From contig CALLAW010000022.1 in the NCBI GenBank assembly GCA_938001865.1, forward strand, positions 4,839-68,838: a stretch of 64,000 nucleotides of DNA, read 5' to 3'. The translations under genes were made by a program, and so were the position numbers. Shown one piece after another: positions 38,016-64,000 of the stretch; position 1 is the first letter of the stretch, and every line of letters starts with the position of its first letter. This DNA is from an uncultured Saprospiraceae bacterium. Lineage in GTDB: Bacteria > Bacteroidota > Bacteroidia > Chitinophagales > Saprospiraceae. Below the pieces are notes generated by a model, which saw only the letters and a program-made list of their open reading frames with translations, was not told the origin of the DNA and made no database searches.

Positions 38016-39866
38016 ATGCAAGCATATTTGAAATATCTACTCATAGGGGGACTTGCAAGTGCTATTTTCCTTCAGTTCTCTATTCTTCCTATTGAATGGA
38101 GATGGCTTGATTTGAAAGTAAGGAACTGCTCTGTGATCTCGATATTGGGTATTGGAGTGTTCCTGCTGTGGTTGGGTAAGTCATTGACAGTTCCCAAGTC
38201 ACTGATCACAGGATTGACTCTGAGTCTCCTGCTGATTAATATCGGTTCGGTGATGTGGGCGACACATCAGTCGCTAGTAATACCAAGTGTGATTGGATGG
38301 TCTAGTATCGTAGGGATCTATCTCATGACATACGCATTGCCGATAGGAGTGATGCGGAGCAAGATATTGAGAGGGTCTATACTATTAGTGATTTCGATTA
38401 ATGTAGGACAGATACTCCTGAGTTACTTCCAAGTGTTAGTCGCGAGCAATTGGCAACTCACACTGAGTCAGTTAGAAGCTGTACCTAGAGAGTACGGGCT
38501 AAATACAAATTTTTTGGGTTCGATGTTTCTTCTCTATATTCCCCTTTTGCTACAGCTTGATTATAGATCTTGGAAGAAGTGGGTAGCTTACTCTAATCTT
38601 GCGGTCATCCTCTGCCTACTCCCATTATTCAATAGTCGAGCTGTCACATTGGGATTGATATTGATGTTGGGGTTTTATCTCTGGCGGAGTTATCGCGAGG
38701 GGAAGATTCTGTACTTTCTGATAGGTCTTGTGGTGTACGCTGGTGTCACACTGATCAACTATCAGTCCATCATCTCTGACAAGAGTAGCTATATCCAGAG
38801 TTACAATCCATCGCGATCACTCATAGAAGATACTGGAGACGATCGTATTGACATTTGGTCCAATTCTTTGCGATTATTTATGGAGAGGCCACTCCTCGGT
38901 CATGGCGCTGGTAATTGGAAGACAGAGATCTATCTGTATGGGTACCATCGCTATAAGAATGGATTGAGAGTAGGTCATGCGCATAGTATCTGGATGGAGA
39001 CTCTCAGTGAGCTTGGTATCGTTGGGTTGATCGTATTGCTATCGTTGTGGATGAGTATATTTTGGTTTGCTCTGAAGACTAGACAGTGGCACTTATTGAT
39101 CGCATTAGTAGGGATGAGTTTGCTGAGTTCGTTCTACGGTATCTATCAACTCAATGATAATAATCTATCTTCTTATTTGATGCTCTTATTTGCTTGGTTG
39201 GGTATTTCTGTGAGGAGGATTGAGTCGCTGTCGCTAAATAGGGTTTATTTGATTCCGATCATACTCCTCCTTGCCGCAGCTGCTTATCTGAGTTATTCAC
39301 AGTTATTGCTCAGTCAATATTTGGGCAGGCTTGCGGGTCAGGATATTCCTGCTTTGCAGATGGAGTTAAAGGATTGGGATAAATACAATCATCGGTTCAC
39401 TTCGCGATTTCGTCAAGGGAAGCATCTCTTATTCATCAAGTCAAATCATCTGTGGAATATAGGCAAACGACATCAGGCACTATTGACACTAGAGGAGGCA
39501 CTTGACATATACCCCTATGATAAGAAAGCTTGGCAAGTCTGTGGCGAACGATCATTGAACCTTAAGAAATATAAGGATGCTGCAGTTTGCTTTGAAAATG
39601 CAGTGGAGCTCTACAATCACAATACCAAGTCATCTCTCCATCTCTGTCGTCTTGGACTGAGGTTCAATGATGATCGGATATTCCAGATAGGCATGCGTGG
39701 TTACTTTGACATTACTCTTCCCTCTTTCTTGGATAACTATAGAGATGAGTATATCACTGGGGATGACCGCAAAATCAGGAATTACTGGTTACAAGAATGT
39801 CATGCGATTGACCAGTATCAACTTTGCTTACAAGCATGGCAAGCTAAACAGCACCAAACAGAATAG
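38016..39866 (+). CDS. O-antigen ligase-like (Wzy_C domain) polytopic membrane protein with a C-terminal TPR-like soluble domain
   Basis: 616 aa with about 10-12 TM segments. It has 'FNSRAVTLGLILMLGFY', 'GHGAGNW' and 'HAHSIWMETLSELGIVGL'. The C-terminal ~170 aa are soluble with TPR-like helices ('ALLTLEEALDIYPYDKKAWQVCGERSLNLKKYKDAAVCFENAVEL'). Confidence 0.75.
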   Translation: MQAYLKYLLIGGLASAIFLQFSILPIEWRWLDLKVRNCSVISILGIGVFLLWLGKSLTVPKSLITGLTLSLLLINIGSVMWATHQSLVIPSVIGWSSIVGIYLMTYALPIGVMRSKILRGSILLVISINVGQILLSYFQVLVASNWQLTLSQLEAVPREYGLNTNFLGSMFLLYIPLLLQLDYRSWKKWVAYSNLAVILCLLPLFNSRAVTLGLILMLGFYLWRSYREGKILYFLIGLVVYAGVTLINYQSIISDKSSYIQSYNPSRSLIEDTGDDRIDIWSNSLRLFMERPLLGHGAGNWKTEIYLYGYHRYKNGLRVGHAHSIWMETLSELGIVGLIVLLSLWMSIFWFALKTRQWHLLIALVGMSLLSSFYGIYQLNDNNLSSYLMLLFAWLGISVRRIESLSLNRVYLIPIILLLAAAAYLSYSQLLLSQYLGRLAGQDIPALQMELKDWDKYNHRFTSRFRQGKHLLFIKSNHLWNIGKRHQALLTLEEALDIYPYDKKAWQVCGERSLNLKKYKDAAVCFENAVELYNHNTKSSLHLCRLGLRFNDDRIFQIGMRGYFDITLPSFLDNYRDEYITGDDRKIRNYWLQECHAIDQYQLCLQAWQAKQHQTE

Positions 39867-40525
39867 ATAAGATGCTCCTCACCAAGAGATTGGAGTTTGA
39901 ATACATTCTCTATCTTGAGATCAACAGAGGTGAAGTGACCTAAGATCGATCTTAAGTCACACTTATCTGTGAGTATCATGTATGTGATCCCTATGTAGTC
40001 TTGTCTCTCTTTGAGTTGTCTTGCCAATGACTTGAAGTACTGATAATCTTGTCCTGCATTGAATGCGTACTCATCTATTGAGTCAGCTGGATGTGCAAAA
40101 AACGGTGGATTGATAACCAGGACATCGAAGTGGCGATTGGGAATATTGGCAAAGAGATCAGATAAGTACGTATTGATCGGAAGATGAAGTCGAGCTGCAT
40201 TAGAGATCACTCCATCAATTGCGGCTGGATTGATATCTGAGACGTGGGCATCTACCTCACAGTTGAGAGCTAGATAGAGACTAATAGCCCCACTCCCACA
40301 GCCGAGCTCCAGAGTTGATTGACCTTTGAGGTCTCTAGTCAAGAGATAATCTAAGAAAGTCTCAGTAGTCAAGTATAGCTTAGGATGAAATACTGTAGGG
40401 TGCAATCGCAGAGCTATCCCTCTGAACTGTATAGTCCGAGGCAGTCGATAATACCATTTGATGAGAGGATAGATAACACTACTGAACCTAGAGGGTAAGA
40501 GGTATATGATTTTATTCAGAAGCAA
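39818..40525 (-). CDS. Class I SAM-dependent methyltransferase with an NPPF motif (HemK/PrmC-like amino-group methyltransferase type)
   Basis: 235 aa. SAM motif I 'LELGCGSGAISLYLA' and motif IV 'VLVINPPFF'. The start overlaps the upstream radical SAM gene by 14 nt. The 3' end overlaps the convergent Wzy_C gene by 49 nt. Confidence 0.75.
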   Translation of the reverse strand: MLLNKIIYLLPSRFSSVIYPLIKWYYRLPRTIQFRGIALRLHPTVFHPKLYLTTETFLDYLLTRDLKGQSTLELGCGSGAISLYLALNCEVDAHVSDINPAAIDGVISNAARLHLPINTYLSDLFANIPNRHFDVLVINPPFFAHPADSIDEYAFNAGQDYQYFKSLARQLKERQDYIGITYMILTDKCDLRSILGHFTSVDLKIENVFKLQSLGEEHLIYSVWCCLACHACKQS

Positions 40526-42029
40526 ATCCCTCTATTTCTGGTTGGCGATATCTGAGCCAAAATTTTTGTAAAAACTTCAGTTCGTACGGATACTTTAAGA
40601 TGTTGTACTTGTATCTCCACGATGCAATCGAAGAGATGACCTGAGATTGAAAAGGTGTCACTTTAGCATCGGTTTTAGTCGGATATCTTGCATTGAGTAC
40701 AGTTTCAAAGTTCTTGACTTTATCTACCATCTTTGGTGTCAACCACGGGGTGAGTGGATTTTTCCGAAGGTCAAAATTTTCCCAACTCGGATTCAACCAA
40801 TCTTCTAAGTCTTTAGGGAAAGAGAATCCGGCATTGACGATTTTTTGATAGAGTTCTGATCCTTCTGTGGGTACTGGGCTGTAGAGGTAGATGATGATCT
40901 CCGTATTGGGGTTGATCTCTTTGACTTCTTTGATGAACTTGATTTCTGCTTCGATTTGCTTCATGACTCGTTCATTACTCGGACCTGGAAACCCAAGGAC
41001 GAATGAGTACTCTGGGACGATTCCATACTTTCCTATCCTGTCAGCAAATGCCTTGATCTGTGCTCCTGTTTGCTTACCTCCCTTGTCTATACTATCGAGG
41101 ATCTCATCGCTGCCACTCTCTGCTCCGAGGAAGATCATCTTACACCCTGAGTCTGCCATGATCTTCAGAGATTCGTCTTTGTACTTGTCTATGGTGTCTA
41201 TACGTCCTTCGCCCCACCAAGTCATATTATGTGGTGCTATCAGCTTTGCAAATTCTACAGTTCTCTTTTCTGATACGAAGAAGTTATTGTCATGAAACTC
41301 TATGGCATCACCACCATAGTTGTTTTTGATCTGGATGATATCATCGTAGATAACCTGAGCTGACTTACCCTTCCATCTGGCTTCATAGATAGGCACTACT
41401 GCACAGAACGAACATGTAAATGGACAACCTAGACTAGAGTGATAAGCGATTGTTTTCTGACCTAAGTGAGTAGGCCTGAGATACCCTTCGATCGGATAGA
41501 AGTTATTGAGCTTAGCATATGGTAATCGAGGGAGACTATCTTGGTCTACCATCGACTGCTTAGTCGTCTTGATGATCTCACCATCAGGCAACTTGTAGAT
41601 GAGATTCTGGACAAATTCGTATGGCTTGTCATCTACGAGAGATTGGAGTAACAGTGGAAAAGCCACATCGCCTGGTCCATTGATGATAAAGTCTACGTAT
41701 CCACTATTGAGCACCACTTCATACTGATTAGATGCAAAGTATCCTCCCCAGATCGTCTTGATTTGGGGGTAGAGTTCTCTGATCTTCTTAGTGTATGGTA
41801 TCGCTTGCTTGAGCTGAGGTCCGGGCATGACGGTCGAGCCAAAAAACATAAAATCCCCAGTCTCGAGGTGAGATTGGATGACCTCCCATGGGTCAGTCTC
41901 TCTGTTACCATCGACAATCACCCAGTCAAAAAAACTGTCAATTGCAGCAGCTACTTGAAGGATAGAATTGGGAATTCTGTAGTTTTTGTTGGATACAGCT
42001 CGCGGATTAAATAGGAGGACTTTATTCAT
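40512..42029 (-). CDS. B12-binding-domain radical SAM protein (paralogue A)
   Basis: 505 aa. The N-terminal Rossmann-like B12-binding region begins 'KVLLFNPRA'. The CX3CX2C cluster is 'GCPFTCSFC', and 'FLGAESGSDEIL' follows. Confidence 0.85.
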   Translation of the reverse strand: MNKVLLFNPRAVSNKNYRIPNSILQVAAAIDSFFDWVIVDGNRETDPWEVIQSHLETGDFMFFGSTVMPGPQLKQAIPYTKKIRELYPQIKTIWGGYFASNQYEVVLNSGYVDFIINGPGDVAFPLLLQSLVDDKPYEFVQNLIYKLPDGEIIKTTKQSMVDQDSLPRLPYAKLNNFYPIEGYLRPTHLGQKTIAYHSSLGCPFTCSFCAVVPIYEARWKGKSAQVIYDDIIQIKNNYGGDAIEFHDNNFFVSEKRTVEFAKLIAPHNMTWWGEGRIDTIDKYKDESLKIMADSGCKMIFLGAESGSDEILDSIDKGGKQTGAQIKAFADRIGKYGIVPEYSFVLGFPGPSNERVMKQIEAEIKFIKEVKEINPNTEIIIYLYSPVPTEGSELYQKIVNAGFSFPKDLEDWLNPSWENFDLRKNPLTPWLTPKMVDKVKNFETVLNARYPTKTDAKVTPFQSQVISSIASWRYKYNILKYPYELKFLQKFWLRYRQPEIEGFASE

Positions 42030-42080
42030 AGTATCTTTAGGGTGTAAAAAATCTAAATTACAACTTTACTTACGGGATTT

Positions 42081-43196
42081 ATGAGGAAATCAGTTGTTCT
42101 TTTTTCATTTCTTTTCTTTTGCTGTCTATTTGAAATGTGTAAGACAAACAAAATCGAGCTTAATGAAAACATGATTTCTCTTCGATGGCATCAGTCATAT
42201 CCATCTGAGACACATCGAGATATTGAGACTGGTCTGATCTGGACGTTTCTCTATCTAGGAGCACACTGCAACGAATCCAATATCCGCAATGGACTAGAGT
42301 GGGTTGATGATCAGGTCTTGACTCTACAGATAGATCAGATGGGATTTGATCAGGAGTCACTTGATGCTATCCGTATCCTTGTCGATGAGCTCAAACAACT
42401 CTCTGAGTACAGATCATCGAGGAGTATCGATGTTGGCCGCTTTGTCATGTATCTCTATAATGAGAGTGATAATTATTACAAGATCACTCAGATGCCTACC
42501 ACTCTTGAGCAATTCGAAGAGAAGTATCACTTCGAAGAGCAGCCAAGATTTATCACTGCATATGGTGAATCATGTGTCTCCTCTGGTATCCGTATCTTCA
42601 ATGCAGCTCAGTCAGACGACTTGACACAGATCGCCTACTTAGCTCAGGAGGGTTATGGTGAGACAGTAGATGACTTCCAAGTCAAGGAGTTTGAAGTATT
42701 TGACTTCATGGATAATGGTCAACCAAGATTTGGGATCTACAATCTACAAGGAGATCTGATCACTGGTGCAGACGCTGATGTGAGCATTGCCGGTAAGCCT
42801 GCTAAGTGTATGTGGTGCCATACCTCAAGTGTGCAACCGATCATCTCTGCAGCTTCGTCGATAGATGGATTTGAGAGGTTGGATTCATTCAGTACCTTGA
42901 TCAAACAACAGAATGGGATCAGAAGGAAGTACCTTAGATCACAGGATCTGGACTTCGTCGTGGATAGTCTGGCGCAGCATTCTCTCGCAGAGCTTCTCTA
43001 CTTTACCTACGAGTACCCAACACCCCAACGCTTGCGATCAGAGGGGCTATCCCTAGATAGCATTGCTGATATTGATTATCACAAGAATCGGGAGTATCAG
43101 TTCTTTAACCTTGTCTTTGACTCTATGGTACATCGGAGTGTGATAGATCCGACCTTCAAATCATCAGCGAGAGAGACGGTCTGGACACCAGAGTAG
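42081..43196 (+). CDS. Hypothetical secreted protein with a single CXXCH motif
   Basis: 371 aa with signal peptide 'MRKSVVLFSFLFFCCLFEMC'. 'KCMWCHT' lies at nt 42807-42821. No other recognisable domain. Confidence 0.5.
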   Translation: MRKSVVLFSFLFFCCLFEMCKTNKIELNENMISLRWHQSYPSETHRDIETGLIWTFLYLGAHCNESNIRNGLEWVDDQVLTLQIDQMGFDQESLDAIRILVDELKQLSEYRSSRSIDVGRFVMYLYNESDNYYKITQMPTTLEQFEEKYHFEEQPRFITAYGESCVSSGIRIFNAAQSDDLTQIAYLAQEGYGETVDDFQVKEFEVFDFMDNGQPRFGIYNLQGDLITGADADVSIAGKPAKCMWCHTSSVQPIISAASSIDGFERLDSFSTLIKQQNGIRRKYLRSQDLDFVVDSLAQHSLAELLYFTYEYPTPQRLRSEGLSLDSIADIDYHKNREYQFFNLVFDSMVHRSVIDPTFKSSARETVWTPE

Positions 43197-43203: not shown

Positions 43204-44793
43204 CTATTCGATGAGATAGACGGCAAAGTTTTCTCGCTTGACGATCCCATCATTGAAGGTTTTGAGGAGTTCTACTCCTGCGGGTAAAGGTTGCTCGAGT
43301 TGTGGTTGGAAGATGTCATCACCATTGTAGAGCAGTATCACTTTCTGGATTTGCATTTTGCTCAGATACTCTTTGGATTTAGTAATTGATATTGACAAGT
43401 CATATTGCTGATTTGGACTTCTCACTTTATCGAGTAATTTCCAATGACAAAAGTGCATGGACTCTGCTACATTGAGAAAGTAGATAGGTCGAGGAGTATA
43501 ATTATTGTAAGAGATACAATTGCAATATGCATTGGATACGACTGGAATAGCATCAAGTGAATTGTCCTTGATATAGGTATGAACACTTTTAGTATTAGAG
43601 AATGGTAGTCTGATGTCTTGGTAGAGATGATAGATAGCAGATACGGATTGCACAAGAATCAAAATCGCAATGAACACTTTGGATATCAATCGTCTTAATC
43701 TTGGGTGAGCACTAAAGGTGGAGGTGTGATGTAAACTGTCAATCCACTTCAATACAATAAGAGTTATAATCAAGATGCCTCCATACCGTACACCAGAATT
43801 CAATGTAGTAAAATATTGAAAACTACAAATCAAGAATGCTGTGAGATACCAAACGGACAAAAGCCATTTTTTCTCCCACTTAAATATGAATGGGAACAAC
43901 CATGATAGGAGAGCAAATGGAGCAATCAAAAACTTGAGATGTGTTGTCAGTAAATTAGTATTCCAGAAAAAATCAGAAGTAAAATCTGGTATCGGAACAA
44001 GTGCCTTAAAGAAGATCATGAGGGCATCAGCTAACCGATCAAAGTCAAACGAAAAGAATGAGATTGCCGATGAAGGGTGGTCACCCGGAGGAATAATAAA
44101 GTAAAGAGAAAGACCACAAAGTAAAGAATAGATCAATAGCCCTAATCTACTTATCGGCTTAGACTCAGTATGGTCCCATAGGGTCTTCCCCAAATAAATA
44201 CAGAGATAGGCAAGAGTAAAAATCAAGCCAAACAAATGCGTATTAGCGATCAGACCTAGGATCAGCCAAGGAAGCCAACGCCAATTGTATTGCTGTTGAT
44301 AAGCAACTGGTAAGCAAAAAGCGAAGAGCATCAATAAACCGTAATTGCGAGCAAGTACACCATACTCATACAGAGGGAAGTAACTGAAAATAAATGCAAT
44401 AACGAAGATCCGAGGTAGGGGAGACTTGAAGAGTAAGAGAGCCACAGCGAGCAGTGTAATGCTGCCATGAATGTACTGGATACACATGGGATTGTCCGTA
44501 ATACTCGAACCCAGATACATGATCATCAACCACAGCGAAGGATGACCATCATACTGATAATTGATTATCAAATCGCTAAGACTGTGAGACTCTCTGGCCA
44601 CTAACCAGTGATGACTTTCGTCCATCCACATTTCATGAGAGATAATGCCAGTAAATAACAAGATGGCATAGCAAACAAGAATCACAATATTGAAGAGCCG
44701 ATAATTTTTCACCGTCGGGTTTGTTGTCAACATGCTCGATGTCTGTACCATAAGAGAGAGATTAATGCTCAAGGAAGCAGTAAATATCGCCAA
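43204..44793 (-). CDS. Polytopic membrane protein, GT-C-like glycosyltransferase (ArnT/PMT-like)
   Basis: 529 aa with more than 10 TM segments. The first loop carries 'MWMDESHHWLVARE', resembling the DE/DxD loop motif of GT-C enzymes. The C-terminal ~150 aa are soluble. An alternative start is ATG 44733. Confidence 0.5.
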   Translation of the reverse strand: MAIFTASLSINLSLMVQTSSMLTTNPTVKNYRLFNIVILVCYAILLFTGIISHEMWMDESHHWLVARESHSLSDLIINYQYDGHPSLWLMIMYLGSSITDNPMCIQYIHGSITLLAVALLLFKSPLPRIFVIAFIFSYFPLYEYGVLARNYGLLMLFAFCLPVAYQQQYNWRWLPWLILGLIANTHLFGLIFTLAYLCIYLGKTLWDHTESKPISRLGLLIYSLLCGLSLYFIIPPGDHPSSAISFFSFDFDRLADALMIFFKALVPIPDFTSDFFWNTNLLTTHLKFLIAPFALLSWLFPFIFKWEKKWLLSVWYLTAFLICSFQYFTTLNSGVRYGGILIITLIVLKWIDSLHHTSTFSAHPRLRRLISKVFIAILILVQSVSAIYHLYQDIRLPFSNTKSVHTYIKDNSLDAIPVVSNAYCNCISYNNYTPRPIYFLNVAESMHFCHWKLLDKVRSPNQQYDLSISITKSKEYLSKMQIQKVILLYNGDDIFQPQLEQPLPAGVELLKTFNDGIVKRENFAVYLIE

Positions 44794-45493
44794 CTAAGAT
44801 AGAGTCATCTAAGTCCATGATAAGGTGAATCATCTCATCAGCTGGGACTGCTTGCTCTAGGCAAAATTCAAAATTTTCAAATGTGTAGTAATTGAACTTA
44901 TAGTTACCGATCTGAGAGATCAAGTTGATACAATCTATCGCATACTGTCTGAATGGCCGAGTGAACTCAAATGAAATAATGGGGATGGATGTACTCAATG
45001 CTCTCAGAGCAATGTGTTCAAATCCTTCGATATCTATCTTGAGATAATGTGGTCTACCGTGTGACTCGATCAGTTGGTCAAATGTCGTTGTGGTTACCTG
45101 AATCTGAGTGTCCCAATTGAGGAACTCTTGCTTAGCATATTCCTCTTTGAACTCTGTAGACAGAGTGGACACTTCGTCTTCATTGCAGAGCATGAGAGTG
45201 AGAGTCCCTACCTTATCTGCAATCGCAACTGGTAGGATTGAAAGTTTTGAAGATTGGATATTCTTAAGAGAGGTGAGACATGAGGGATGAGGTTCTACAG
45301 CGAGGACTCTTGTGCCGAGTTCTAGATAGAGTTGAGTGTACCTTCCATGATTAGCACCACAATCAAAGACAAGGTGGCCTTGCTCCAATATCTGACTATA
45401 GAATCTTCGCATCTTTTGTTTTTTGAGAGCGGTTCTATAGCTTGACTTTAATTGTTTGAGAATGTTTATCTTCATTTGATCGTCTATTGACAA
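44762..45493 (-). CDS. FkbM-family SAM-dependent methyltransferase
   Basis: 243 aa. 'VFDCGANHGRYT', 'VLAVEP' and 'LKIDIEGFE' are typical of FkbM-type methyltransferases. Confidence 0.8.
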   Translation of the reverse strand: MSIDDQMKINILKQLKSSYRTALKKQKMRRFYSQILEQGHLVFDCGANHGRYTQLYLELGTRVLAVEPHPSCLTSLKNIQSSKLSILPVAIADKVGTLTLMLCNEDEVSTLSTEFKEEYAKQEFLNWDTQIQVTTTTFDQLIESHGRPHYLKIDIEGFEHIALRALSTSIPIISFEFTRPFRQYAIDCINLISQIGNYKFNYYTFENFEFCLEQAVPADEMIHLIMDLDDSILVGDIYCFLEH

Positions 45494-45559: not shown

Positions 45560-46279
45560 TTATTTAATTAATCTCTTCCCAATAGATGCCTTGATTTCCT
45601 CCTTGGAGTAAAAAAAGTTAGCGTATTGAGTATCATATAATCGTGAAAGATAGGCTTGTGGAAAGACAGCTGACTCAAGGAAATGTCGATACAACAGTGA
45701 GTAAGGTTTGTTACTTCCAACATTGTAGCGTTTGAGTTCAAATGATTCGCAACCAAGAAACTCCCTGAGTACTTGAGATTTAATTTTATCGGCTAGGTCC
45801 GTCCTCAATATCAGAAGATCGATATTGCCGATTTTTTGGCTAGACCACATGAGTGAGTGATCAAATGCCAAGTCGTAGACATTGATGCCTGTCATCCTCT
45901 CGAGCTCGTCTTCAAACCATAAGATTGGATAGTCATGATCGAGCTTGGTGTGATAGACTTGGAGTAATTCTTCTTGGCTTCCTTTCCAGTCTTCTGGTCT
46001 GACACCAGTGTGATATTGGAATGCTTCAAAGAATGCTGACAGATTCCGTTCCAAAGGATCACGTACGCAAGTGATGATTTTGATTGGTTTATTTTGCTTG
46101 AGTTGATGCTGATAGATGAGGCCTCCGACTTGTCTACTATCTGGGATTATATGGTGGCTCAGGGCAAGTGCCTCACTCTCCTTGATCTTGTGGTCATCCA
46201 GAGAGTGGATGTGGTATGGAGTGACGTCGCATTGACTCTTGATTGAGTGATAGATGGAGGTAGAGGCGACCTTAGCCAT
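45560..46279 (-). CDS. Sulfotransferase-family protein (start codon uncertain)
   Basis: 239 aa. There is a PAPS 5'-phosphosulfate-loop-like 'AKVASTS' at the very N-terminus and a 3'-phosphate motif-like 'VRDPLERNLSAFF'. See the finding on the missing beta1 strand and start codon. Confidence 0.6.
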   Translation of the reverse strand: MAKVASTSIYHSIKSQCDVTPYHIHSLDDHKIKESEALALSHHIIPDSRQVGGLIYQHQLKQNKPIKIITCVRDPLERNLSAFFEAFQYHTGVRPEDWKGSQEELLQVYHTKLDHDYPILWFEDELERMTGINVYDLAFDHSLMWSSQKIGNIDLLILRTDLADKIKSQVLREFLGCESFELKRYNVGSNKPYSLLYRHFLESAVFPQAYLSRLYDTQYANFFYSKEEIKASIGKRLIK

Positions 46280-57800: not shown

Positions 57801-60800
57801 ATGAAGGTTGTATCTAGCGTACACCAGTTGCCATCTCTGATTGTCAAGGTGTACTCTCCAGCAGATAAATAACTATTTGTTAAACCATGAGAACCGTTAC
57901 TCCAAGTTATTTGATAGTCTTCTATTCCACCAACTATTTCAACAGTAATGCTTCCTTCTCTATTTGGCGTAATGATGTTGTCACTTTGGATCGTTGCAAA
58001 CACCTCGATCATTTCTGGTGATTTAACTTCTATTGATAATGTTTCGTTACAACCATAGTTGCTAATTACAGTTACTTCGTAGACTCCGCTGGCAAGATTT
58101 TCTCTTTTATTTTGGATTGACCCATCGTCCCAACTGATTGTATATTCATTGCTTAGTGATTCTATATCTAACTCTATTTCACCTTCAGTATCACCATAGC
58201 AAGGGTTATCTTGTGTCGTATATGTAATATTGAGGTAAGGGGCTGGGACATTGAGAGTTGCTACCTCTTCGCATCCCGTCTGATCTGTAACTGTTACACT
58301 ATAACTTCCTGGTGAGACTCCAGCTATCACGTCAACATCAGATGCTCCGTTACTCCAGAGTATTTGATATGGTTCATCTCCCGAATCATAGACAAGAGAT
58401 AATTGTGCAGTGATGGGGTCGTCACAATTGAGGCTATCAATCTGCAGCCTAGCTTTCGGTTGAGTGGAAATCTCAACGAAAAATTGTTCTATATATCTAC
58501 ATCCATTCCCATCTATGAGTTCTAATATGTGTGAGCCATGAGATAAGAAAGGACTCTGCAATTGGTCAGTAGATACTCCATCCCATATGATGTCATAAGA
58601 GTCAGCATCTTGCAAGTTTAATATCTCTGCGTAATACTCCGTAACACAACTTGCAGAGTGAATGTCTAATTCATATTCAGGTCTAGGTTGTTTTGGAATC
58701 TCATACTCCCAATTGAAAAAACAACCCCCAATCCATGCACTGACCAAATGGATTCCTGGTTCGCTATACACAGGACTCTGTACTCCTGTAAATGTGCCAT
58801 CCCAAATGAAGATAATGGGAATGTCAGAATCAAAAAAGTTGGTGGCGATTAGTGATTCATTGATTGTTGTATCCAGTTGAGCATAGTATTGACCACAATC
58901 ATTTTTTAAAACTTCTACATCTACATTCAGGATATCTTCTAATACAAGTACGGGTACATCAAACTCCTTAACTCTTGAGCAGCTGTCAGTAACAACTTCG
59001 ACAGTATGCAGTCCTGGAGTTAGAGGGTCACTCGTATTATTTCCCAATATTCCATCCCAATACACTTCATAGGGTTGATCTGCTTCTAAATCAATAAGTT
59101 TAGCGAAGTAACCTGGATTATTGCAAACTTTTGTTTGAATAAGTATATCAAAACTCAGAGGTTGTCTTAGCTCTATGTCAAACTCTTTGTAACAACCAGA
59201 GTCGTTGTATGCTGTCAAAGTAAAATCCCCTTCTGGTAAATTTGGTAAGCTGTCAATGAATATTTGATCGGCGACTGAGAATTGAATGTTTTCAACAGAG
59301 GCAGATGCCCACACTACTCCATCAGATTGGTTACAATTAGGATTTTGGGTTTCATATTCAATGTCAAAATACCTGAAATCATCTTGATAATCTAAAGAGA
59401 AAGTATGTTCTATGGCACAACCCCATTGATTAGAAAGGATAACTTTGTAATTACCAGGTTCTAAATTTTTAATTGTATCACTGACTATCTGATCATCCAA
59501 TCTGTAGATGGCAGTTGGGTCATTACTGCGGAGAATAATCATGCCATTATCTTCATAGCAAGTTGGATTGATGGCATATGAATCGTCGTGCACCCATTTG
59601 CATTCTATGCATTCTGTGTCGATTTCTTGAATCCCTTCTTGCCAGTACCACATCACATCCATCTCACCATCTAAGTCATAGTCTACAACATCAACTGTGC
59701 TGTCATCATTTTGATCAAATCCGTAAACGTTAATTCTATCAATACGTTCGCCTAGATAATGAATGATTACACCTGAGTTGACAGAGTAAATGAGTTCTTT
59801 TTTTCCATCACCGTTAACATCCTCAAACACCATATTTTCAGTAAATCCACTATACCCACCGTATAGAATATCATCCAGAACTTCTAAAGTTAATGGTGAT
59901 AATATTTCTAAGTGGTTTCCATTGAGATAAAGGATCTCATCTTTACCATCTCCATCCCAATCATCAACTACGACGTCATCATCACTCGAGCAGCAAGGAT
60001 CATAATAATTGATCAAGGCAAATTCATTTTGATAGTCATCTAAAACGATTAGCAACCCATCTGTTAAAACGATTTCTGGAGCAGGATCATCGTCAAGATT
60101 TTTTACTCTGATATGTTTAATGCTTAAAGGCCAACCTACTGGATTGAAATCATCTGCCTCTAATAATTGTTCGAATGTACTTCCATCCAAAATGAAAAAA
60201 TCACTGAACGAACTAAAAAGAAAATCCTTTATTCCATCTTCGTTAACATCAGTTACAGCGAAAACATCTCCTATTCCATAATCGACAGTCTTGTTTAATT
60301 CTACTGTTAAGGTCTTTCCATCTAATACGAGAAAATGTACCCGTTCATCATTAATGCTCGGATAAGTTCCTCCTACTAGTAAGATGTCTTTGTCTCCATC
60401 ATTATTATAGTCGTAGACTCGTACCGCTCTGCAGTCAGAAAAATTTTCATGAGGGATATATTGTTCAACTTGGTTTGTCTCTGGATCATAAATTTTCAAT
60501 ATTGATCTGACAGGATGGTTTCCATTAGAGACTGTGATAAATTCTACTTGACCATCTTCGTCAACATCTTCAAAGACAGAGGTGCTTGAGTCAATATGGT
60601 GGTTCGCATTAGGAATGATATACTCAATTGTTTGGGTGTCAAACTCATACATGAAATGGTCGATATCTCCCTTGCCGTACCAAAATTCTATTGATTCATC
60701 ATCATCAAAATTGCCCAAGGTCAATTGAAAACTAAATGCTGTATTTGAAGGAAAAGGAAATGGATTGTCTGTACTAGATTGTAACTCCCCTGTGAGTCCA

Positions 60801-61729
60801 TCATAGACTAAAATGATATTACTGGAGTGCTTAAATATTACTATTTCTATTAAATTATCATGATCTATGTCTGCAATTCCATAAGCATCTGTATACTCTA
60901 GTTCTATTTCGTAGTAAGCAGTTTCATTTCCAACATCATAGCACCGCAGTAATTCATCACTTGAAAGATAAATGAATTCATCTACTCCGTCTTGATTTAC
61001 ATCTACGGTTCGATTTTCATCCGAGAAGCCCATGAGAGGAGGAATATTATAGTCATTCTCAAATTCATTGTCTTCGTATTGATAGACATGTCCGTTTTCA
61101 AAAATGATTTCTATAAAATCATCATCATCAAAATTTCCAAAATATAAATCTCTACTTAGACTTTCTGAGTAGTTGAGCTCTGAATAATGAAGCAATTTGA
61201 AATCTAGAGTATAGACACTTAAGTTTTCTGTGCTTGCGATGATGATTTCTCTCAGTCCATCATTGTTAATATCAAAAAAGTAAATTTCAGAAACTCTTGT
61301 TAATTGGTCTAATTCACTAAAGCATTTTTTTGCTAGGAGTGTCTCGATATCTAATAAGATGATATCTGACTTGTCAGTTACCACTAAGTCATCCTGTCCG
61401 TCGCCATCATAATCGAAAATGACTGGCTGAGAAACCATATCATAAGCATCCGATGACTTGACTTCTTCCATTAAGGGATCGTTATGGAAGTCAACTGTAA
61501 ATACTACACTAGTTTGAATACTTGAATAACTGCGATTGATAATTTCATCATTTCCATCACCATCTATATCGTATAATATATGTTCTTGATCAAGTTGATA
61601 ATTAGTAGCAAGGTTCCAAAGCGGTTCACAAGCAATATTGCAATTACTAGTCTGAGAGTAAGATTGCATTGATACGATGCATAGACTCCAAAGAGCAAGA
61701 TATTTGATCAAGTTGAATTCTATTTTCAT
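51839..61729 (-). CDS. Giant secreted adhesin-like protein: two FG-GAP/VCBS beta-propeller regions, three SprB-repeat/Ig-like blocks and a T9SS C-terminal sorting domain
   Basis: 3296 aa with a signal peptide. There are many 'D(I/Y)DGDGxxE(I/L)' Ca-binding FG-GAP-type repeats and SprB-type units ('CYGDTEGEIELDI..', 'CYQDATGEIEIEIALGEPPYEF', 'GGVEPYTYLWSNG'). The C-terminus reads 'IFIYPNPTTQTIYLE...LYSLDGKMI...NGIYILVIE'. Confidence 0.85.
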   Translation of the reverse strand: MKIEFNLIKYLALWSLCIVSMQSYSQTSNCNIACEPLWNLATNYQLDQEHILYDIDGDGNDEIINRSYSSIQTSVVFTVDFHNDPLMEEVKSSDAYDMVSQPVIFDYDGDGQDDLVVTDKSDIILLDIETLLAKKCFSELDQLTRVSEIYFFDINNDGLREIIIASTENLSVYTLDFKLLHYSELNYSESLSRDLYFGNFDDDDFIEIIFENGHVYQYEDNEFENDYNIPPLMGFSDENRTVDVNQDGVDEFIYLSSDELLRCYDVGNETAYYEIELEYTDAYGIADIDHDNLIEIVIFKHSSNIILVYDGLTGELQSSTDNPFPFPSNTAFSFQLTLGNFDDDESIEFWYGKGDIDHFMYEFDTQTIEYIIPNANHHIDSSTSVFEDVDEDGQVEFITVSNGNHPVRSILKIYDPETNQVEQYIPHENFSDCRAVRVYDYNNDGDKDILLVGGTYPSINDERVHFLVLDGKTLTVELNKTVDYGIGDVFAVTDVNEDGIKDFLFSSFSDFFILDGSTFEQLLEADDFNPVGWPLSIKHIRVKNLDDDPAPEIVLTDGLLIVLDDYQNEFALINYYDPCCSSDDDVVVDDWDGDGKDEILYLNGNHLEILSPLTLEVLDDILYGGYSGFTENMVFEDVNGDGKKELIYSVNSGVIIHYLGERIDRINVYGFDQNDDSTVDVVDYDLDGEMDVMWYWQEGIQEIDTECIECKWVHDDSYAINPTCYEDNGMIILRSNDPTAIYRLDDQIVSDTIKNLEPGNYKVILSNQWGCAIEHTFSLDYQDDFRYFDIEYETQNPNCNQSDGVVWASASVENIQFSVADQIFIDSLPNLPEGDFTLTAYNDSGCYKEFDIELRQPLSFDILIQTKVCNNPGYFAKLIDLEADQPYEVYWDGILGNNTSDPLTPGLHTVEVVTDSCSRVKEFDVPVLVLEDILNVDVEVLKNDCGQYYAQLDTTINESLIATNFFDSDIPIIFIWDGTFTGVQSPVYSEPGIHLVSAWIGGCFFNWEYEIPKQPRPEYELDIHSASCVTEYYAEILNLQDADSYDIIWDGVSTDQLQSPFLSHGSHILELIDGNGCRYIEQFFVEISTQPKARLQIDSLNCDDPITAQLSLVYDSGDEPYQILWSNGASDVDVIAGVSPGSYSVTVTDQTGCEEVATLNVPAPYLNITYTTQDNPCYGDTEGEIELDIESLSNEYTISWDDGSIQNKRENLASGVYEVTVISNYGCNETLSIEVKSPEMIEVFATIQSDNIITPNREGSITVEIVGGIEDYQITWSNGSHGLTNSYLSAGEYTLTIRDGNWCTLDTTFIVEEIVVEEQNPECNEVCTPLWMDIPFTGNIGKKNNYIKYDYDQDGEDEYLTYETASTSSSFGAGRSFIYVFDYNVEKEEFEKIHSTDLISATFTDMARGDLDGDGKEELVFSSRDWTFIYDLSTLTQIDCFRHSWHGATPSIEMQIFDFDLDGQNEILMLNGNTFYVYDPIAHIIEFELEHDAGDFDIGNVDDDPNLEFVLSNGQVYEYDGENYILESDLELSRTDFIKLWDTDGDGKEEAIIEEQHDVFVYDLDTGNQKFEISLGSNIWIVNDLRLISLDDFSDKINIYNLSNGSRIKSMSIDTDPYFSSLYSLFLDDFDNDDQNEILASFNSTFNIGSLRLYNLSNGHTESSTERYSGPFDDIHLVDIDQDNSMEIISLTGEGFYFNENELKIKIYDAQSKILERTIDLTSDQYEITTASLDILDYQNDGDLDIVITQHQSSDLHVIIYDGTTGVPELEEVNQNGFSSMQSSQLYDIDEDGLLDVIVASSEHLSIYNLDNLSTKWTSYELVNNLSVQGIEVGNVDLDEASEIILCKGYIHFFDDHSHEYQLTQSQYDNYTATTIFDWDNDGINEIIGGTSNGNVHILTSDDMNIIDTIDVSNASILGMSGGDIDQDGVEELLITSLDSLFIHKPRSNTTVSHLYGVFVGRDEGLAHGDINGDGNHEVFIGTEYSLMEVDMTCFECDWVDFSPEYANPTCYEDNGWILAASADTTANFYLNGEEVTDTLKNLGTGEYLFTVTNALGCELEYEVSLEYPYDFEVEEFEVEWKDPICGSDGIIYTKTLNTSLLFMVDGVEFQDSMIGLNFGNHTLVAFNENGCYREVQVVLDEPVTLSYDLLISGCGPEDYKYIDLRLSHYYDHDPLIYWNDTIVESENFNAYIIPTEVGVGTLEARMDTCSIIEEIEITPIDPLSSLEFDLVYNDHIGCNQENTFVTLENYIGGPGPVHTYWNGVEGLGFNTIVEEGSHVVEVTDATGCKSVEYFEVTKDPIISYDFDIVYGGCQNPDENYAVISNIQNIGSIHTISWDGTIGTQTSPILGQGFHNFEITYDNNCSESFTFEVEPIPTLEANLIQTQHYCDEDNLASIEIEMLSGTAPYEYVWSNNVSSSNIAENLSWGNYQVTITDAENCQGIHSLYIQSRKVFIDAIPTDLLCYQDATGEIEIEIALGEPPYEFLLDGVESNQIINQLNAGDYEVIVIDNNGCTASQSVTISEPPPLTISASITHDSLVTSSLEGMISTTVTGGVEPYDYLWETESIESTISELEAGIYTLTLQDANDCQADTTFVVESIACDRVDLGVAYNHPSCNEDNGWIVLFSEDSTANIYLEGNVVTDTLQYLSPGNYQFSISNDQGCQMDSVITLEYQLVDLDQITIEIQDPICGNDGVISVTSLDPNLTFTLDGEELIESISGLDHGEYQLVVVNTDACSSQISLSLEEPVIPLIDILATGCGPEDHKYIELSLMNDLEHDPIILWNDTIIASNSLNQYLINTEIGIGILEIQLEECSISQSIEITPIDPLNTIQFDLTYDSIPCNATGTELIIENIENGSNSYQVFLDEVELFELTATVSEGLHTIEVMDTSGCLTTQQIEVFSEPLISYDFEIINGSCSNPEDNSAVVSNVENSGQNISISWDDMPGDLTSPSLGQGSHSLEIIYGDNCIETLEFFIDSKDSLEMIINQSNHYCDEINLAAVEIEVLNGTTPYDYDWSGNISESSIAENLIPGNYELTITDAENCQGVASFTITDSQLEAEFMTTDVLCSGDTTGMVTIETLTGEPPYIYQIDGIESDQVISNLQAGIYDVTVIDSIGCSITQSITIGEPNQLDIIAEITQDHSSTSSLDGSISVTITGGVEPYTYLWSNGDEDSLITDLPVGNYALTVEDSNGCLIDSTFTIDAISSISTLQKAEIFIYPNPTTQTIYLESTRRFDVDQLTLYSLDGKMIRNNFDKLVGSKKYTLNLDFIPNGIYILVIESKGIAQRHKIIILD
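52100..53930 (-). repeat. Intragenic ~610-aa SprB/Ig-like block, copy 3 (coordinates approximate)
   Basis: Starts 'IACDRVDLGVAYNHPSCNEDNGWIVLFSEDSTANIYLEGNVVTDTLQYL'. It is colinear with copy 2 over its whole length (e.g. 'GCGPEDHKYIELSL', 'IEITPIDPLNTIQFDL', 'TITDAENCQGV'). Confidence 0.65.
53930..55760 (-). repeat. Intragenic ~610-aa SprB/Ig-like block, copy 2 (coordinates approximate)
   Basis: Starts 'TCFECDWVDFSPEYANPTCYEDNGWILAASADTTANFYLNGEEVTDTLKNL'. It shares 'GCGPEDYKYIDLRL', 'IEITPIDPLSSLEFDL' and 'TITDAENCQGI' with copy 3. A more diverged copy 1 lies at ~57790-59630. Confidence 0.65.
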
Positions 61730-61811: not shown

Positions 61812-62588
61812 TTATGTTACATCATCCGTGCTCTTTACCAGCTCCACTAAATAGTGATCTCCATACCTCCCACCAATGCTCAAGATGGAGAACACTCTTG
61901 AGAACAATAACAGTACTGACTCCAACCAATGCCCTGACCAATAAGAGGGCACATAGCCAGTCGCTTTTAAGGTCTTGACTTCATACCCTTCAAAGATTTC
62001 TGTAACTTCATCAGGATTAAAAAAGTAAGTCTGCACTAATTGTCCATCAACATTGACTTGTGTTGGATTTTGACTTTGTCTGAGACGAAGAGATTGCCTA
62101 TCACCCTTGAACCTGCGATACCACTGCTCGATCAGAGTGTCTCGTGGCATGATGACCAAGATCAAGCTCCCACCATCAACTAGGTGACTCTGCGACCAAT
62201 TAGCGAATCGTCTGAGTTGGTTACTATCTAGACAATTCAATCCACCAAAGTTAGAGAAGATGAGATCAAACTGTTGGCTAAGATGAGGGAGAGTCGTGAG
62301 ATCGAGCTGCTGAGTCGTGACGTTGGGTAATGCCCGACATTTACCTTGAGTGACTGCAAGCATCTCAGTTGAGATATCTGTAGCTAAGACTTCGTGACCT
62401 AATTCTCCAAGGTACTTTGCATCTTCTCCAGTCCCACAGTTGAGTTCCAAGATTGACTGCTTGGAGTGACCTCTTGCTAAGATTCGGCCTAGTCTCTTCC
62501 AGACCACTTGACGCTGACCTCTGCCAATGGCGGTATTGGTGAATGTCTTGTCATATCCTATCGCTGCTCTATCAAAGTCTGCTGCCAT
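61812..62588 (-). CDS. Class I SAM-dependent methyltransferase
   Basis: 258 aa. SAM motif I 'ILELNCGTGEDAKYL' and the post-I acidic 'VLATDIS'. It lies 27 nt downstream of radical SAM paralogue C and 82 nt upstream of the giant adhesin gene, on the same strand. Confidence 0.8.
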   Translation of the reverse strand: MAADFDRAAIGYDKTFTNTAIGRGQRQVVWKRLGRILARGHSKQSILELNCGTGEDAKYLGELGHEVLATDISTEMLAVTQGKCRALPNVTTQQLDLTTLPHLSQQFDLIFSNFGGLNCLDSNQLRRFANWSQSHLVDGGSLILVIMPRDTLIEQWYRRFKGDRQSLRLRQSQNPTQVNVDGQLVQTYFFNPDEVTEIFEGYEVKTLKATGYVPSYWSGHWLESVLLLFSRVFSILSIGGRYGDHYLVELVKSTDDVT

Positions 62589-62615
62589 TGTGGGATCGAA
62601 GTGATTGTTTTTTTA

Positions 62616-64000
62616 TTACAAATGACCTTCTAGCTTACGCCTATTGAGAGCTGCAAGAGGTGTGTGGTAGATCATCCTTGCGATATCTTTGATCAATGAA
62701 TCTTGTCTTGATTTGAGTTTGCCCTTGAGTCTCAGGATACCTTTATTGATCCGATAGCGATTGTGAACGTACCGGTGCAGCACCTTGTAGAATGCTGGTG
62801 GATAAGTATTCTCAAACATCATATCCAAGTCATCAGAGTCTGTCCAGTTGGACTTCATCACCAGATCAGCCTTGACTTTGTCATAAAACTTGGTCCCAGG
62901 TAGAGGGTAGGAGACAGAGATCCCTATCTCATCTGGCATGAGGTCGAGTACCATATCGATCGTCTGTTGGACTTCTTCCCAAGTCTCGGTCAAGTAGCCA
63001 AATTGTAAAAAGAATGCTACCTTGACATCTCTCTCTTTGAGCTTACGTGTAGCAGTAGAGATTTGCTCGACTGTAGTCCCCTTATCCATGGCATCGAGTA
63101 TCCGCTGAGATCCACTCTCTGCTCCTAGCCAGATGGTATCAGCACCACTCTCCGCGAGAGCATCGAGATTGTCGTCCTTGAGCATCAGATCAGCTCGGGA
63201 CTGTATCTTGTATCGGAAGTCAAGTCCACGTTGATGTTTGAGTTGGTTGAACTCTTGTACCCAGCCTGGTTTGAGTCCAAAGATGTCATCACACATCCAG
63301 AAGTAATTGACGGCATAAGTCTGGATCAAATACTCTATCTCATTGATGACATCTTGTGGCGATCTTGTATTGTATCTGTTGCCGTAGATAGGCTTAGCAC
63401 ACCAGTTGCACTTATATGGACATCCACGTGTCGTAGCGATATTGAGAGCAAATGTTGAGTGCTTAGCTTCCCAAATTTTGCGATAAGTAGCAATGTCTAT
63501 ATCCTCCCTCTTGGGAAATGAAAGGTCATCTAGGTTTTTGCTGACTTGACGTTTTGCATTTTTGATGACACTCTGATGATTGATATAGCTGATGCCATTT
63601 ACATGAGTGATGTCTCCATGGTTATCTAGTGTGTGGATAAGCTCGACGAGAGCCATTTCTCCTTCGCCATGGATGACATAGTCTGCACCCTTGTCGTGAT
63701 ATGTCTGGAAGTGATCAGTCGAGTCAGAGCTATTGCAGATCACGATACATCCATGCTCTTTCGCTTTGTGGATGATGTCAAATGTTGCCTCTTGCATCCG
63801 AGTGAGACACATCTTAGTCAGGTAGTTGAATCCATCATCATAGAGGACTACGTATTTTGGCTTGACCGTCTCTATGGTGTCATAGATCTCAGAGTGGTGC
63901 TCGACGAGGTTGTTATCAAATACTGTGACCTGATGACCTACTTTGCGGAGCTCCGAAGCAGCATAGAGTGTCCCGAGTGGCGGATATGGCTGAGCGGTAT
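62616..64000 (-). CDS. B12-binding-domain radical SAM protein (paralogue C; 5' end outside the window)
   Basis: The frame stays open upstream of the first listed Met (63812) to the window edge. That stretch encodes '..AQPYPPLGTLYAASELRKVGHQVTVFDNNL', a B12-binding N-terminus matching 'KPYPPLGILYIAAYL' of paralogue B. The CX3CX2C cluster is 'RGCPYKCNWC', and 'IWLGAESGSQRILDAM' follows. Confidence 0.85.
   Translation of the reverse strand, partial: TAQPYPPLGTLYAASELRKVGHQVTVFDNNLVEHHSEIYDTIETVKPKYVVLYDDGFNYLTKMCLTRMQEATFDIIHKAKEHGCIVICNSSDSTDHFQTYHDKGADYVIHGEGEMALVELIHTLDNHGDITHVNGISYINHQSVIKNAKRQVSKNLDDLSFPKREDIDIATYRKIWEAKHSTFALNIATTRGCPYKCNWCAKPIYGNRYNTRSPQDVINEIEYLIQTYAVNYFWMCDDIFGLKPGWVQEFNQLKHQRGLDFRYKIQSRADLMLKDDNLDALAESGADTIWLGAESGSQRILDAMDKGTTVEQISTATRKLKERDVKVAFFLQFGYLTETWEEVQQTIDMVLDLMPDEIGISVSYPLPGTKFYDKVKADLVMKSNWTDSDDLDMMFENTYPPAFYKVLHRYVHNRYRINKGILRLKGKLKSRQDSLIKDIARMIYHTPLAALNRRKLEGHL

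Follow-up and report, generated by a model that had tools for sequence, protein, structure and literature searches.

Gene content of the locus

We analysed a stretch of 64,000 nucleotides (in the following "the window") from an uncultured Saprospiraceae bacterium (contig CALLAW010000022.1), in which genes for radical S-adenosylmethionine (SAM) enzymes, methyltransferases, sulfotransferases and membrane proteins occupy the positions from 38016 to the end. Fourteen genes had been listed here in an earlier note on this DNA, and all 14 open reading frames (ORFs) were recovered at the positions given below by ORF listing, Pfam and NCBIfam scans, motifs and a structure model. Part of them belong to a conserved cassette, which consists of a radical SAM enzyme (rSAM1) with a methyltransferase carrying an NPPY or NPPF motif, a protein termed c4, a further radical SAM enzyme with its own methyltransferase (rSAM3 and MT25), and often a third radical SAM enzyme (rSAM2). 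For comparison the window region and 82 fetched loci were combined (83 loci) and all of their ORFs were clustered; rSAM1 is present in all of them by construction. As a description, an envelope-glycan locus fits the region best; such loci are of a known kind, and this one carries a widespread and undescribed tailoring cassette of B12-type radical SAM enzymes, methyltransferases and a nucleotidyltransferase.

Domain scans across the 64-kb window found no GT-A or GT-B glycosyltransferase, no priming transferase, no sugar-nucleotide gene and no Wza or Wzc, in line with the absences on which the earlier note had laid weight. A standard Wzx/Wzy O-antigen or capsule locus is expected to contain a priming phosphoglycosyl transferase, soluble GT-A/GT-B enzymes and Wzz/Wza/Wzc. 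These required genes are missing from the window, where a Wzx-like and a Wzy_C protein are present, and the view that this is not a standard locus of that type can be kept. The label of an atypical island is weak, as the GC content of the cluster genes (0.405-0.452) is close to that of much of the remaining window (0.42-0.45), with the large adhesin gene alone being lower (0.35-0.39).

The three radical SAM enzymes

The three enzymes are encoded on the minus strand at 40512-42029 (rSAM1), 48049-49461 (rSAM2) and 62616-64000 (rSAM3, cut by the window end). The Radical_SAM domain (PF04055) scored above the cut-off in all of them (42.4, 80.6 and 75.4 bits, respectively), and the cluster motif CX3CX2C reads CPFTCSFC in rSAM1, CPYTCKWC in rSAM2 and CPF/YKCNWC in the rSAM3-type orthologues. 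The B12-binding domain (PF02310) is above the cut-off in rSAM2 (46.8 bits). In rSAM1 the N-terminal domain of this type reaches 28.9 bits, below the 32.1-bit cut-off (E 1e-6), and a precomputed PF02310 match exists in most rSAM1 homologues. For rSAM3 a B12-type domain is suggested by the full-length alignment to rSAM2 (32% identity over the whole length, B12-domain region included), in which the N-terminal YPPLGTLY stretch of rSAM3 falls on the B12-domain region of rSAM2.

The reading frame of rSAM3 is open to base 63998, so the earlier description of a gene running off the window was correct, and a second contig of the same organism (L085) provides the full length of 479 amino acids. The TTG start listed for rSAM2 is probably wrong; the true start is likely the ATG at 49422, giving 457 amino acids. 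Orthologues of rSAM2 have 456-479 residues, and the failure of the TTG-start form to return a match in an exact-sequence look-up is explained by this probably wrong start. The designation as paralogues does not hold: pairwise identity among rSAM1, rSAM2 and rSAM3 is only 26-32%, and judging from their alignments they are three separate orthologous groups and not recent paralogues.

Most of what is known about B12-dependent radical SAM enzymes comes from pathways for antibiotics, cofactors, lipids and peptides. None of the three reached the curated NCBIfam cut-off for any characterised subfamily (BchE, HpnJ, HpnR, PhpK, ApyD, MgmA, BzaD, AprD4, TsrM and others). The best scores were 116 of the required 578 bits for rSAM1 (HpnJ), 170 of 481 for rSAM2 and 140 of 481 for an rSAM3 orthologue (both BchE), while the AprD4 family model gave 52-80 bits against a cut-off of 500 and TIGR04014 gave 48-116 bits against 360. 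With matches so far below the cut-offs the enzymes fall outside the characterised subfamilies, whereas membership in one of unrelated function had been named in the earlier note as an argument against its proposal. Among solved structures the nearest, all with E-values at superfamily level (1e-10 to 1e-16), are AprD4, MgmA, TokK and CysS, with AprD4 being closest to rSAM1, and MgmA (9ccb) and AprD4 (6fd2) sharing the first place for rSAM2 (each about 1e-16). C-methylation by these enzymes is an assumption taken from the behaviour of the class; as AprD4 illustrates, the same architecture can also do non-methylating chemistry.

Partner methyltransferases, sulfotransferases and c4

The gene following rSAM1 (39818-40525, minus strand) encodes a HemK-like class I methyltransferase with an NPPF motif (Pfam MTS, 52.4 bits), and the first 14 nt of this gene overlap the end of rSAM1. 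Its orthologues adjoin rSAM1 in 53 of the 83 loci and carry NPPY in 46 and NPPF in 7 of them. NCBIfam matches of PrmC/HemK type all remained below their cut-offs; the enzyme is predicted to be an N-methyltransferase. The partner of rSAM3 is MT25 (61812-62588, minus strand), a class I SAM-dependent methyltransferase (Methyltransf_25, 58.6 bits) with orthologues directly after rSAM3 in 57 of the 83 loci. Orthologues of rSAM2 (at least 45% identity) occur in 20 loci and normally stand directly after MT25. A third methyltransferase, at 44762-45493 (minus strand), belongs to the FkbM family (Methyltransf_21 67.9 bits and TIGR01444 76.5 bits, both above the cut-off) and is an accessory found in 5-6 other loci and in the Saprospiraceae-type locus L086.

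One sulfotransferase and one sulfotransferase-like protein are encoded. The latter, at 45560-46279 (minus strand), has an NKWYS domain (62.5 bits) and weak, sub-threshold matches to Sulfotransfer_1 and Sulfotransfer_2, that to Sulfotransfer_2 at 21.7 bits against a cut-off of 22. The sulfotransferase, at 50902-51741 (plus strand), is of the type that uses 3'-phosphoadenosine 5'-phosphosulfate (PAPS); it matches Sulfotransfer_1 with 100.8 bits, and the translation contains the motifs PKSGTTW (5'-phosphosulfate binding) and RDPRD (3'-phosphate binding). The radical SAM enzymes, methyltransferases and sulfotransferases are regarded as cytoplasmic since they have no predicted transmembrane segments.

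Contrary to the idea that each radical SAM gene begins a gene string, rSAM3 is preceded by c4, which directly precedes and overlaps it and lies beyond base 64000. On contig L085 a c4 homologue at 1-879, 39% identical to the copy at 267-1181 of L086, is followed by the full rSAM3 gene. Since c4 is part of the conserved core (43 of the 83 loci), the window contains the cluster only incompletely. The structure model of c4 (pLDDT 91.9) combines a winged helix with a minimal nucleotidyltransferase fold, and its homologues sometimes carry the nucleotidyltransferase domains PF01909 and PF18765. Foldseek returned weak matches to nucleotidyltransferases (MntA, LinB, AadA, DrrA) and to winged-helix proteins, with E-values of 0.046 or worse.

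Membrane and exported proteins

Four proteins are polytopic: the Wzy_C protein, the two GT-C-type enzymes and the Wzx-like protein. The first of them (38016-39866, plus strand) combines Wzy_C (72.6 bits) with C-terminal TPR units (TPR_2/TPR_14). Its closest solved structure is the ligase WaaL (7tpg, E 1.2e-5), and a gene of this kind lies beside the cassette in the Saprospiraceae-type loci L003, L006, L086, L088 and L089. As a minor observation, this gene and the convergent NPPF methyltransferase gene share 49 nt at their 3' ends (39818-39866), and a convergent layout with a small overlap is also present in L003 and L086.

A polytopic protein of 529 amino acids (43204-44793, minus strand) has no Pfam family. 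Its AlphaFold2 model (pLDDT 90.1) gave, in a Foldseek search of the PDB, 26 top matches that are all of the GT-C glycosyltransferase fold (STT3, DPY19, ArnT with a TM-score of 0.49, EmbB, AftB, PimE, PglB and Pmt), in agreement with the earlier call of a GT-C-like enzyme. The residues D58-E59 in the first extracytoplasmic loop are invariant among 38 homologues. Such homologues lie in or adjoin the cassette in 7-8 other loci; a BLASTP comparison with the PMT_2 protein of other loci gave no similarity. The second enzyme (46380-47957, minus strand) matches GT87 (PF09594, the DUF2029/PimE type) over model positions 2-237 of 237 with 61.3 bits against a cut-off of 25 and has about 11 transmembrane segments. 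All five Saprospiraceae-type relatives and 8-11 other loci have it.

The Wzx-like flippase (49716-50960, plus strand; Polysacc_synt_3, 44.5 bits) has about 10 transmembrane segments. The remaining extracytoplasmic candidate is a lipoprotein-type protein at 42081-43196 (plus strand), for which neither a Pfam nor an NCBIfam match was obtained. In the alignment of its family the N-terminal signal ends in Cys and the sequence AGKPxKCxWCH is invariant, with exactly one CxxCH motif in 126 of 127 full-length members. The family comprises 250 clusters at 50% identity among 1.84 billion representatives, its members are about 370-400 amino acids long, and it accompanies the cassette in 12 other loci. 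By its export signal and CxxCH motif the protein is c-type cytochrome-like; export and covalent haem attachment are predicted. Sequence-profile searches of the PDB and Pfam with this protein, the 529-residue protein and c4 gave nothing significant.

Conservation of the block in close relatives

Five relatives of Saprospiraceae type (the loci L003, L006, L086, L088 and L089) have an rSAM1 that is 75-79% identical to that of the window. Eleven of the window genes recur in them as a compact block of 9-12 genes, namely rSAM3, MT25 and rSAM2, GT87, NKWYS, FkbM, the haem lipoprotein, the 529-residue GT-C protein, rSAM1 with the NPPF methyltransferase, and Wzy_C-TPR. In L086 the order is c4, rSAM3, MT25, rSAM2, GT87, NKWYS, FkbM, the haem protein, unk230, rSAM1, the NPPF-type methyltransferase and Wzy_C-TPR, followed on the Wzy_C side by sigma70, PolA and GyrB. 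The block of L088 lies between sigma70 and transketolase and contains Wzy_C-TPR, the string c4-rSAM3-MT25-rSAM2-GT87, the haem protein, rSAM1 and the methyltransferase. In L089, between FKBP and PEPCK, c4, rSAM3, MT25, rSAM2, the methyltransferase, rSAM1, GT87 and NKWYS form one co-directional string, with Wzy_C in addition. L003 and L006 are arranged similarly, L003 with an extra GT2 gene. The NKWYS gene is found in L003, L006, L086 and L089.

The flanks of the block differ in every relative and from those of the window, where UvrC is the neighbour. As the gene order is kept while the flanks differ, the block behaves as a unit, and the clustering goes far beyond chance. A mere juxtaposition of unrelated functions could be read from the mixed orientation of the genes in the window and from a promoter and terminator scan at chance level; it is refuted by the conserved synteny, with the same genes together in five close relatives and the core together in dozens of distant genomes, and we give it next to no credence. 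The proposal of one functional neighbourhood thus holds for the 11 genes. Three others, the adhesin, the Wzx-like and the Sulfotransfer_1 genes, were not found in the five relatives.

These three genes fill a spacing of 12.35 kb between MT25 and rSAM2 in the window. The two neighbours abut or overlap in four of the five relatives, and in L006 a single FkbM gene stands between them. By this comparison the three genes were inserted between MT25 and rSAM2 in this lineage. The adhesin (51839-61729, minus strand; 3,296 amino acids) is a cargo of the type IX secretion system (T9SS) with matches to SprB and to FG-GAP_3 repeats, which form propellers, and with the C-terminal sorting domain Por_Secre_tail (45.1 bits, residues 3220-3294). 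Only two weak matches to it were found among the other loci of the 83-locus set. A cluster arranged "around" the adhesin, as first described, is not what the comparison yields: the adhesin is absent from all relatives examined and splits the MT25-rSAM2 pair, and it was rejected on synteny as organising centre or target. It is a later, lineage-specific insertion outside the conserved cluster. Being on the same strand as MT25 and following it after a gap of 82 nt, it may be co-transcribed with MT25 in this organism. No flanking repeats as a signature of a mobile element were detected around the inserted block, the only repeats being internal to the adhesin.

The other two inserted genes may be true accessories. 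Homologues of the Sulfotransfer_1 protein lie near rSAM1 in three other loci (L053, L056 and L077), and in L053 a protein with a weak Polysacc_synt match adjoins this homologue beside the cassette. For the Wzx-like protein itself BLASTP found no homologue in the other loci of the set.

Distribution of the cassette and its neighbours

The core of the cassette is present in at least 520 species genomes, which belong to Bacteroidota, Ignavibacteriales and Calditrichia. Among the matches listed, rSAM1, the most conserved gene of the cassette, has homologues of 61-79% identity in Saprospiraceae, other Chitinophagales, Sphingobacteriales, Cytophagales, Flavobacteriales, Ignavibacteriales and Calditrichia. 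In the 83 loci the rSAM3-type enzyme occurs 62 times, MT25 57 times, the NPPY/F methyltransferase 53 times, c4 43 times and the rSAM2-type enzyme 20 times. Two types of SPASM-type radical SAM enzyme are further companions; the commoner one is found in 43 of the 83 loci, and either type in 35 of the 54 loci of at least 18 kb.

Two individual loci deserve mention. The Ignavibacteriales rSAM1 of L008 is 68% identical to the window protein, which is above most Bacteroidota copies (61-65%) among the matches listed and points to strong constraint or to lateral transfer. The cassette on L013 (PBTY01000054.1), a contig with the label "Rickettsiales bacterium", is of Bacteroidota type (65% identity), and this contig was probably binned wrongly.

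The neighbours of the cassette vary by lineage and are overwhelmingly related to glycans: GT4, DUF1972-GT4, GT2, Bac_transf, Wzy_C and polysaccharide deacetylase, with GNAT, amidohydrolase and MsbA-like ABC exporter genes in addition. In four loci a PMT_2 GT-C gene stands inside the cassette, and in other loci a methyltransferase of the cassette matches the NodS Pfam model (E 8e-8). At least one recognised glycan gene was found in 45 of the 54 loci of at least 18 kb. The lack of soluble glycosyltransferases, to which the earlier note had attached importance, is therefore a property of this lineage only, as elsewhere the cassette lies among GT4, GT2, Bac_transf and ABC exporter genes.

These neighbourhoods bear on the nature of the substrate. 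It could be a membrane lipid (hopanoid-like, polyprenyl or other) that is tailored by the cassette, and not a glycan. The best NCBIfam match of rSAM1 is to the lipid-type enzyme HpnJ, rSAM2 and rSAM3 match a ladderane-type lipid radical SAM model and HpnR, the window lacks a soluble glycosyltransferase, and GT-C enzymes such as ArnT and PimE use lipid acceptors. The lipid-type matches are, however, 3- to 6-fold below their cut-offs, and no annotated neighbour family in the 83 loci is one of lipid synthesis (cyclase, prenyl synthase, fatty-acid or acyl-chain enzyme), in contrast to the frequency of glycan genes. We therefore hold a lipid substrate to be quite improbable.

An exported secondary metabolite, aminoglycoside-like or a glycolipid, in place of a structural surface component seems just as improbable to us. 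It would agree with AprD4, an enzyme of aminoglycoside-sugar deoxygenation, as the closest structure to rSAM1 and a joint first for rSAM2, with the weak likeness of c4 to the antibiotic nucleotidyltransferases LinB and AadA, and with the frequent GT4, deacetylase, GNAT and ABC exporter neighbours. Yet the cassette spans several orders at the high rSAM1 identities among the matches listed and keeps company with envelope-type genes (Wzy_C/WaaL-like, GT-C, Bac_transf, Wzx-like). Conservation over several orders together with such genes is more readily expected of a structural component of the envelope than of an antibiotic with sporadic occurrence.

A protein or a peptide resembling a ribosomally synthesized and post-translationally modified peptide (RiPP) has also to be considered as substrate. 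The cassette would then C- and N-methylate it, possibly at glutamines, and perhaps nucleotidylate it, while the GT-C and Wzy_C-TPR proteins would glycosylate this or a different secreted protein, with T9SS adhesins like that of the window as conceivable targets. Several observations point in this direction: the invariant NPPY/F motif of the HemK/PrmC-like methyltransferase; the place of MgmA, a C-methyltransferase of glutamine in methyl-coenzyme M reductase (MCR), among the closest structures to rSAM2; sub-threshold matches to RiPP-type B12-radical SAM and daptide methyltransferase models; the SPASM-type enzymes in 35 of the 54 long loci; the weak similarity of c4 to AMPylases of MntA and DrrA type; the protein-glycosylating enzymes STT3, DPY19 and Pmt among the fold matches of the GT-C protein; and the position of the adhesin 82 nt behind MT25 on the same strand in this genome. 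Against it, the protein-type family matches are all far below their cut-offs, the dominant neighbours are of polysaccharide type (Bac_transf, GT4, deacetylase, ABC exporter), and the adhesin is absent from every relative and shows no enrichment of the O-glycosylation motif of Bacteroidota (24 observed, 18.3 ± 4.0 expected). When small ORFs of 20-90 amino acids were clustered over the 83 loci, no family occurred in more than three loci, and the most widespread one (three loci) is unrelated, which argues against a peptide precursor; in the window only the stretch 49462-49715 offers room for a precursor gene. A RiPP cluster was rejected as a candidate on the missing conserved small ORF, and modification of a protein or peptide in general appears unlikely to us.

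A probable cell-envelope glycan locus and its possible mechanism

We favour the interpretation that the region is a locus for assembly and tailoring of a cell-envelope glycoconjugate, built around the conserved and uncharacterised cassette, and assign to it a probability of roughly 55%. A heavily tailored glycan that is assembled periplasmically, as the earlier note had suggested, is the best fit to the enzyme set and to the neighbours in the 83 loci.

The predicted compartments allow a pathway to be drawn. In the cytoplasm a sugar, probably an amino sugar, on a nucleotide or polyprenyl-phosphate carrier would be modified. The three B12-type radical SAM enzymes would act on unactivated carbons, most likely by C-methylation, with deoxygenation or rearrangement as possible alternatives. 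The NPPF enzyme could N-methylate the sugar, MT25 and the FkbM enzyme could add O-linked or further methyl groups, and the NKWYS and Sulfotransfer_1 enzymes could add sulfate. The lipid-linked product would then be flipped across the membrane, in this genome by the Wzx-like protein, and on the periplasmic side the GT87 and 529-residue GT-C enzymes would pass it on to an acceptor. The WaaL-like Wzy_C-TPR protein might ligate or polymerise the product onto a lipid or protein, and the haem c lipoprotein might perform a periplasmic redox step. What the analysis shows directly are the domains and folds assigned, the compartments predicted for the proteins, the conserved cassette and the inserted adhesin; each chemical step of this scheme is inferred, and so are the carrier, the role of the haem protein and the acceptor, be it lipid A-core, a different glycolipid or a protein.

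A number of points weigh against this interpretation. None of the radical SAM enzymes matches a characterised family, so that methylation is assumed from class behaviour only, and nine of the 54 long loci contain no recognised glycan gene. NPPY methyltransferases usually act on protein glutamine or nucleic acids. Some components are typical of protein modification, with MgmA tying as the closest solved structure to rSAM2, and the minimal fold of c4 weakly resembles protein or antibiotic adenylyltransferases. Neither a synthase for a polyprenyl-phosphate-sugar donor nor PAPS synthesis genes were found in the window. The promoter and terminator scan remained at chance level, while one must keep in mind that the sigma-70 consensus it used is unsuited to Bacteroidota.

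As a more far-reaching and tentative suggestion, an undescribed pathway may be shared by members of Bacteroidota, Ignavibacteriales and Calditrichia in which two to three cobalamin-type radical SAM enzymes together with methyltransferases and the nucleotidyltransferase perform C-H chemistry on a building block for a primary glycoconjugate of the cell surface, and this block is then installed from the periplasm by GT-C enzymes. If this is true, it would be, as far as we know, the first B12-radical SAM chemistry in housekeeping envelope glycan synthesis, and the surface structure of these bacteria, most of which scavenge B12, would be linked to the supply of cobalamin. If the radical SAM enzymes tailor a surface glycan, they would represent a new class of glycan modification, and the surface chemistry of abundant environmental Bacteroidota would be cobalamin-dependent. 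They would also offer tractable test cases, as the cassette is carried by cultured strains such as Mucilaginibacter gossypiicola, M. corticis, M. pineti, Aquimarina litoralis, Winogradskyella sp. and Pinibacter soli. Further new targets for study are the family of the haem c lipoprotein and that of the unclassified GT-C protein.

No curated model names any of the radical SAM groups, c4, the haem protein or the 529-residue GT-C protein. Literature searches aimed at B12-radical SAM enzymes in Bacteroidota, O-antigen or polysaccharide contexts brought up no such cluster, a Bacteroidota fitness preprint held nothing relevant to the cassette, and a 2026 review of B12-radical SAM enzymes, which is not comprehensive, does not mention glycans.

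Comparison with known systems

The Arn and Gtr systems modify a sugar while it is bound to undecaprenyl phosphate and flip it, after which a GT-C enzyme (ArnT or GtrC, for example) carries out the transfer. The window resembles them by its two GT-C enzymes (GT87 and the protein at 43204-44793, with ArnT among its best fold matches), its flippase-like protein and its cytoplasmic tailoring enzymes, and distant cassette loci have a gene of the polysaccharide-deacetylase family, to which ArnD belongs, and GT2. It differs in having no GT2 enzyme of ArnC/GtrB type, no aminotransferase, no dehydrogenase and no formyltransferase, and in adding the Wzy_C-TPR protein and the haem lipoprotein. To our knowledge the tailoring set of three B12-type radical SAM enzymes, at least three methyltransferases, two sulfotransferases and a nucleotidyltransferase has no counterpart there.

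Loci with Wzx, Wzy and WaaL share with the window a Wzy_C protein, whose closest structure is WaaL, and a Wzx-like protein, and with the distant loci Bac_transf, GT4 and GT2. The window departs from them by the absence of a priming transferase, GT-A/GT-B enzymes, Wzz/Wza/Wzc and sugar-nucleotide genes, and by the TPR units on its own Wzy_C protein.

Among radical SAM enzymes of class B that act on sugars, GenK and GenD1 C-methylate in gentamicin synthesis, AprD4 deoxygenates aminoglycosides, and Fom3 is a further example. The enzymes of the cassette have the same order of an N-terminal B12-type domain and a CX3CX2C core, and AprD4 is their closest or joint-closest structure; the similarity is confined to the superfamily core (E 1e-10 to 1e-16). 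GenK, GenD1, Fom3 and AprD4 are known from actinomycete antibiotic pathways and not as widely conserved components of envelope loci.

A combination of decorations reminiscent of the cassette is known from Nod-factor genes, where NodS adds N-methyl, NodH sulfate and NoeI, of FkbM type, O-methyl groups, NodB is a deacetylase and NodIJ an exporter. N-methyl, FkbM-type O-methyl and sulfate modifications would likewise be combined here, and distant loci add a deacetylase, acyl- or acetyltransferases and an ABC exporter. Homologues of NodA and NodC are absent here, however, and radical SAM, GT-C and Wzy_C proteins are not known from nod clusters; the likeness is in the logic and not in homology.

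For protein methylation the closest precedent are MgmA and Mmp10, B12-radical SAM methylases of MCR, with MgmA C-methylating a glutamine (PMC11796369). The MgmA structure 9ccb is the best PDB match of rSAM2 (E 1e-16), and the neighbouring HemK-like methyltransferase points to glutamine chemistry. In contrast, TIGR04014 scores far below its cut-off, MCR is missing, and the hosts of the cassette are aerobic Bacteroidota.

Genes in the remaining window

Elsewhere the window has housekeeping genes, an efflux pump of the resistance-nodulation-division (RND) type, a PorP/SprF gene and another two genes for T9SS cargo. The left boundary of the cluster is marked by genes unrelated to it. All of them stand upstream of UvrC: a SelO protein adenylyltransferase gene (27468-29114, minus strand), an RND efflux operon (29212-34907, minus strand) and an endonuclease-like gene of DUF559 type (35233-35604, plus strand). 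The operon encodes an outer-membrane factor, a membrane-fusion protein and, with an ORF of 1,065 amino acids, presumably the pump itself.

The PorP/SprF-family gene (16944-18035, minus strand) stands just before the stretch of lowest GC content (0.32-0.36, at 20-26 kb). The two T9SS cargo genes lie in this stretch (19367-21268, minus strand, and 21932-24241, plus strand), and one of them has MopE-type metal-binding motifs, the other a matrixin M10 peptidase domain. Together with the PorP/SprF gene they are about 28-35 kb away from the SprB-like adhesin.

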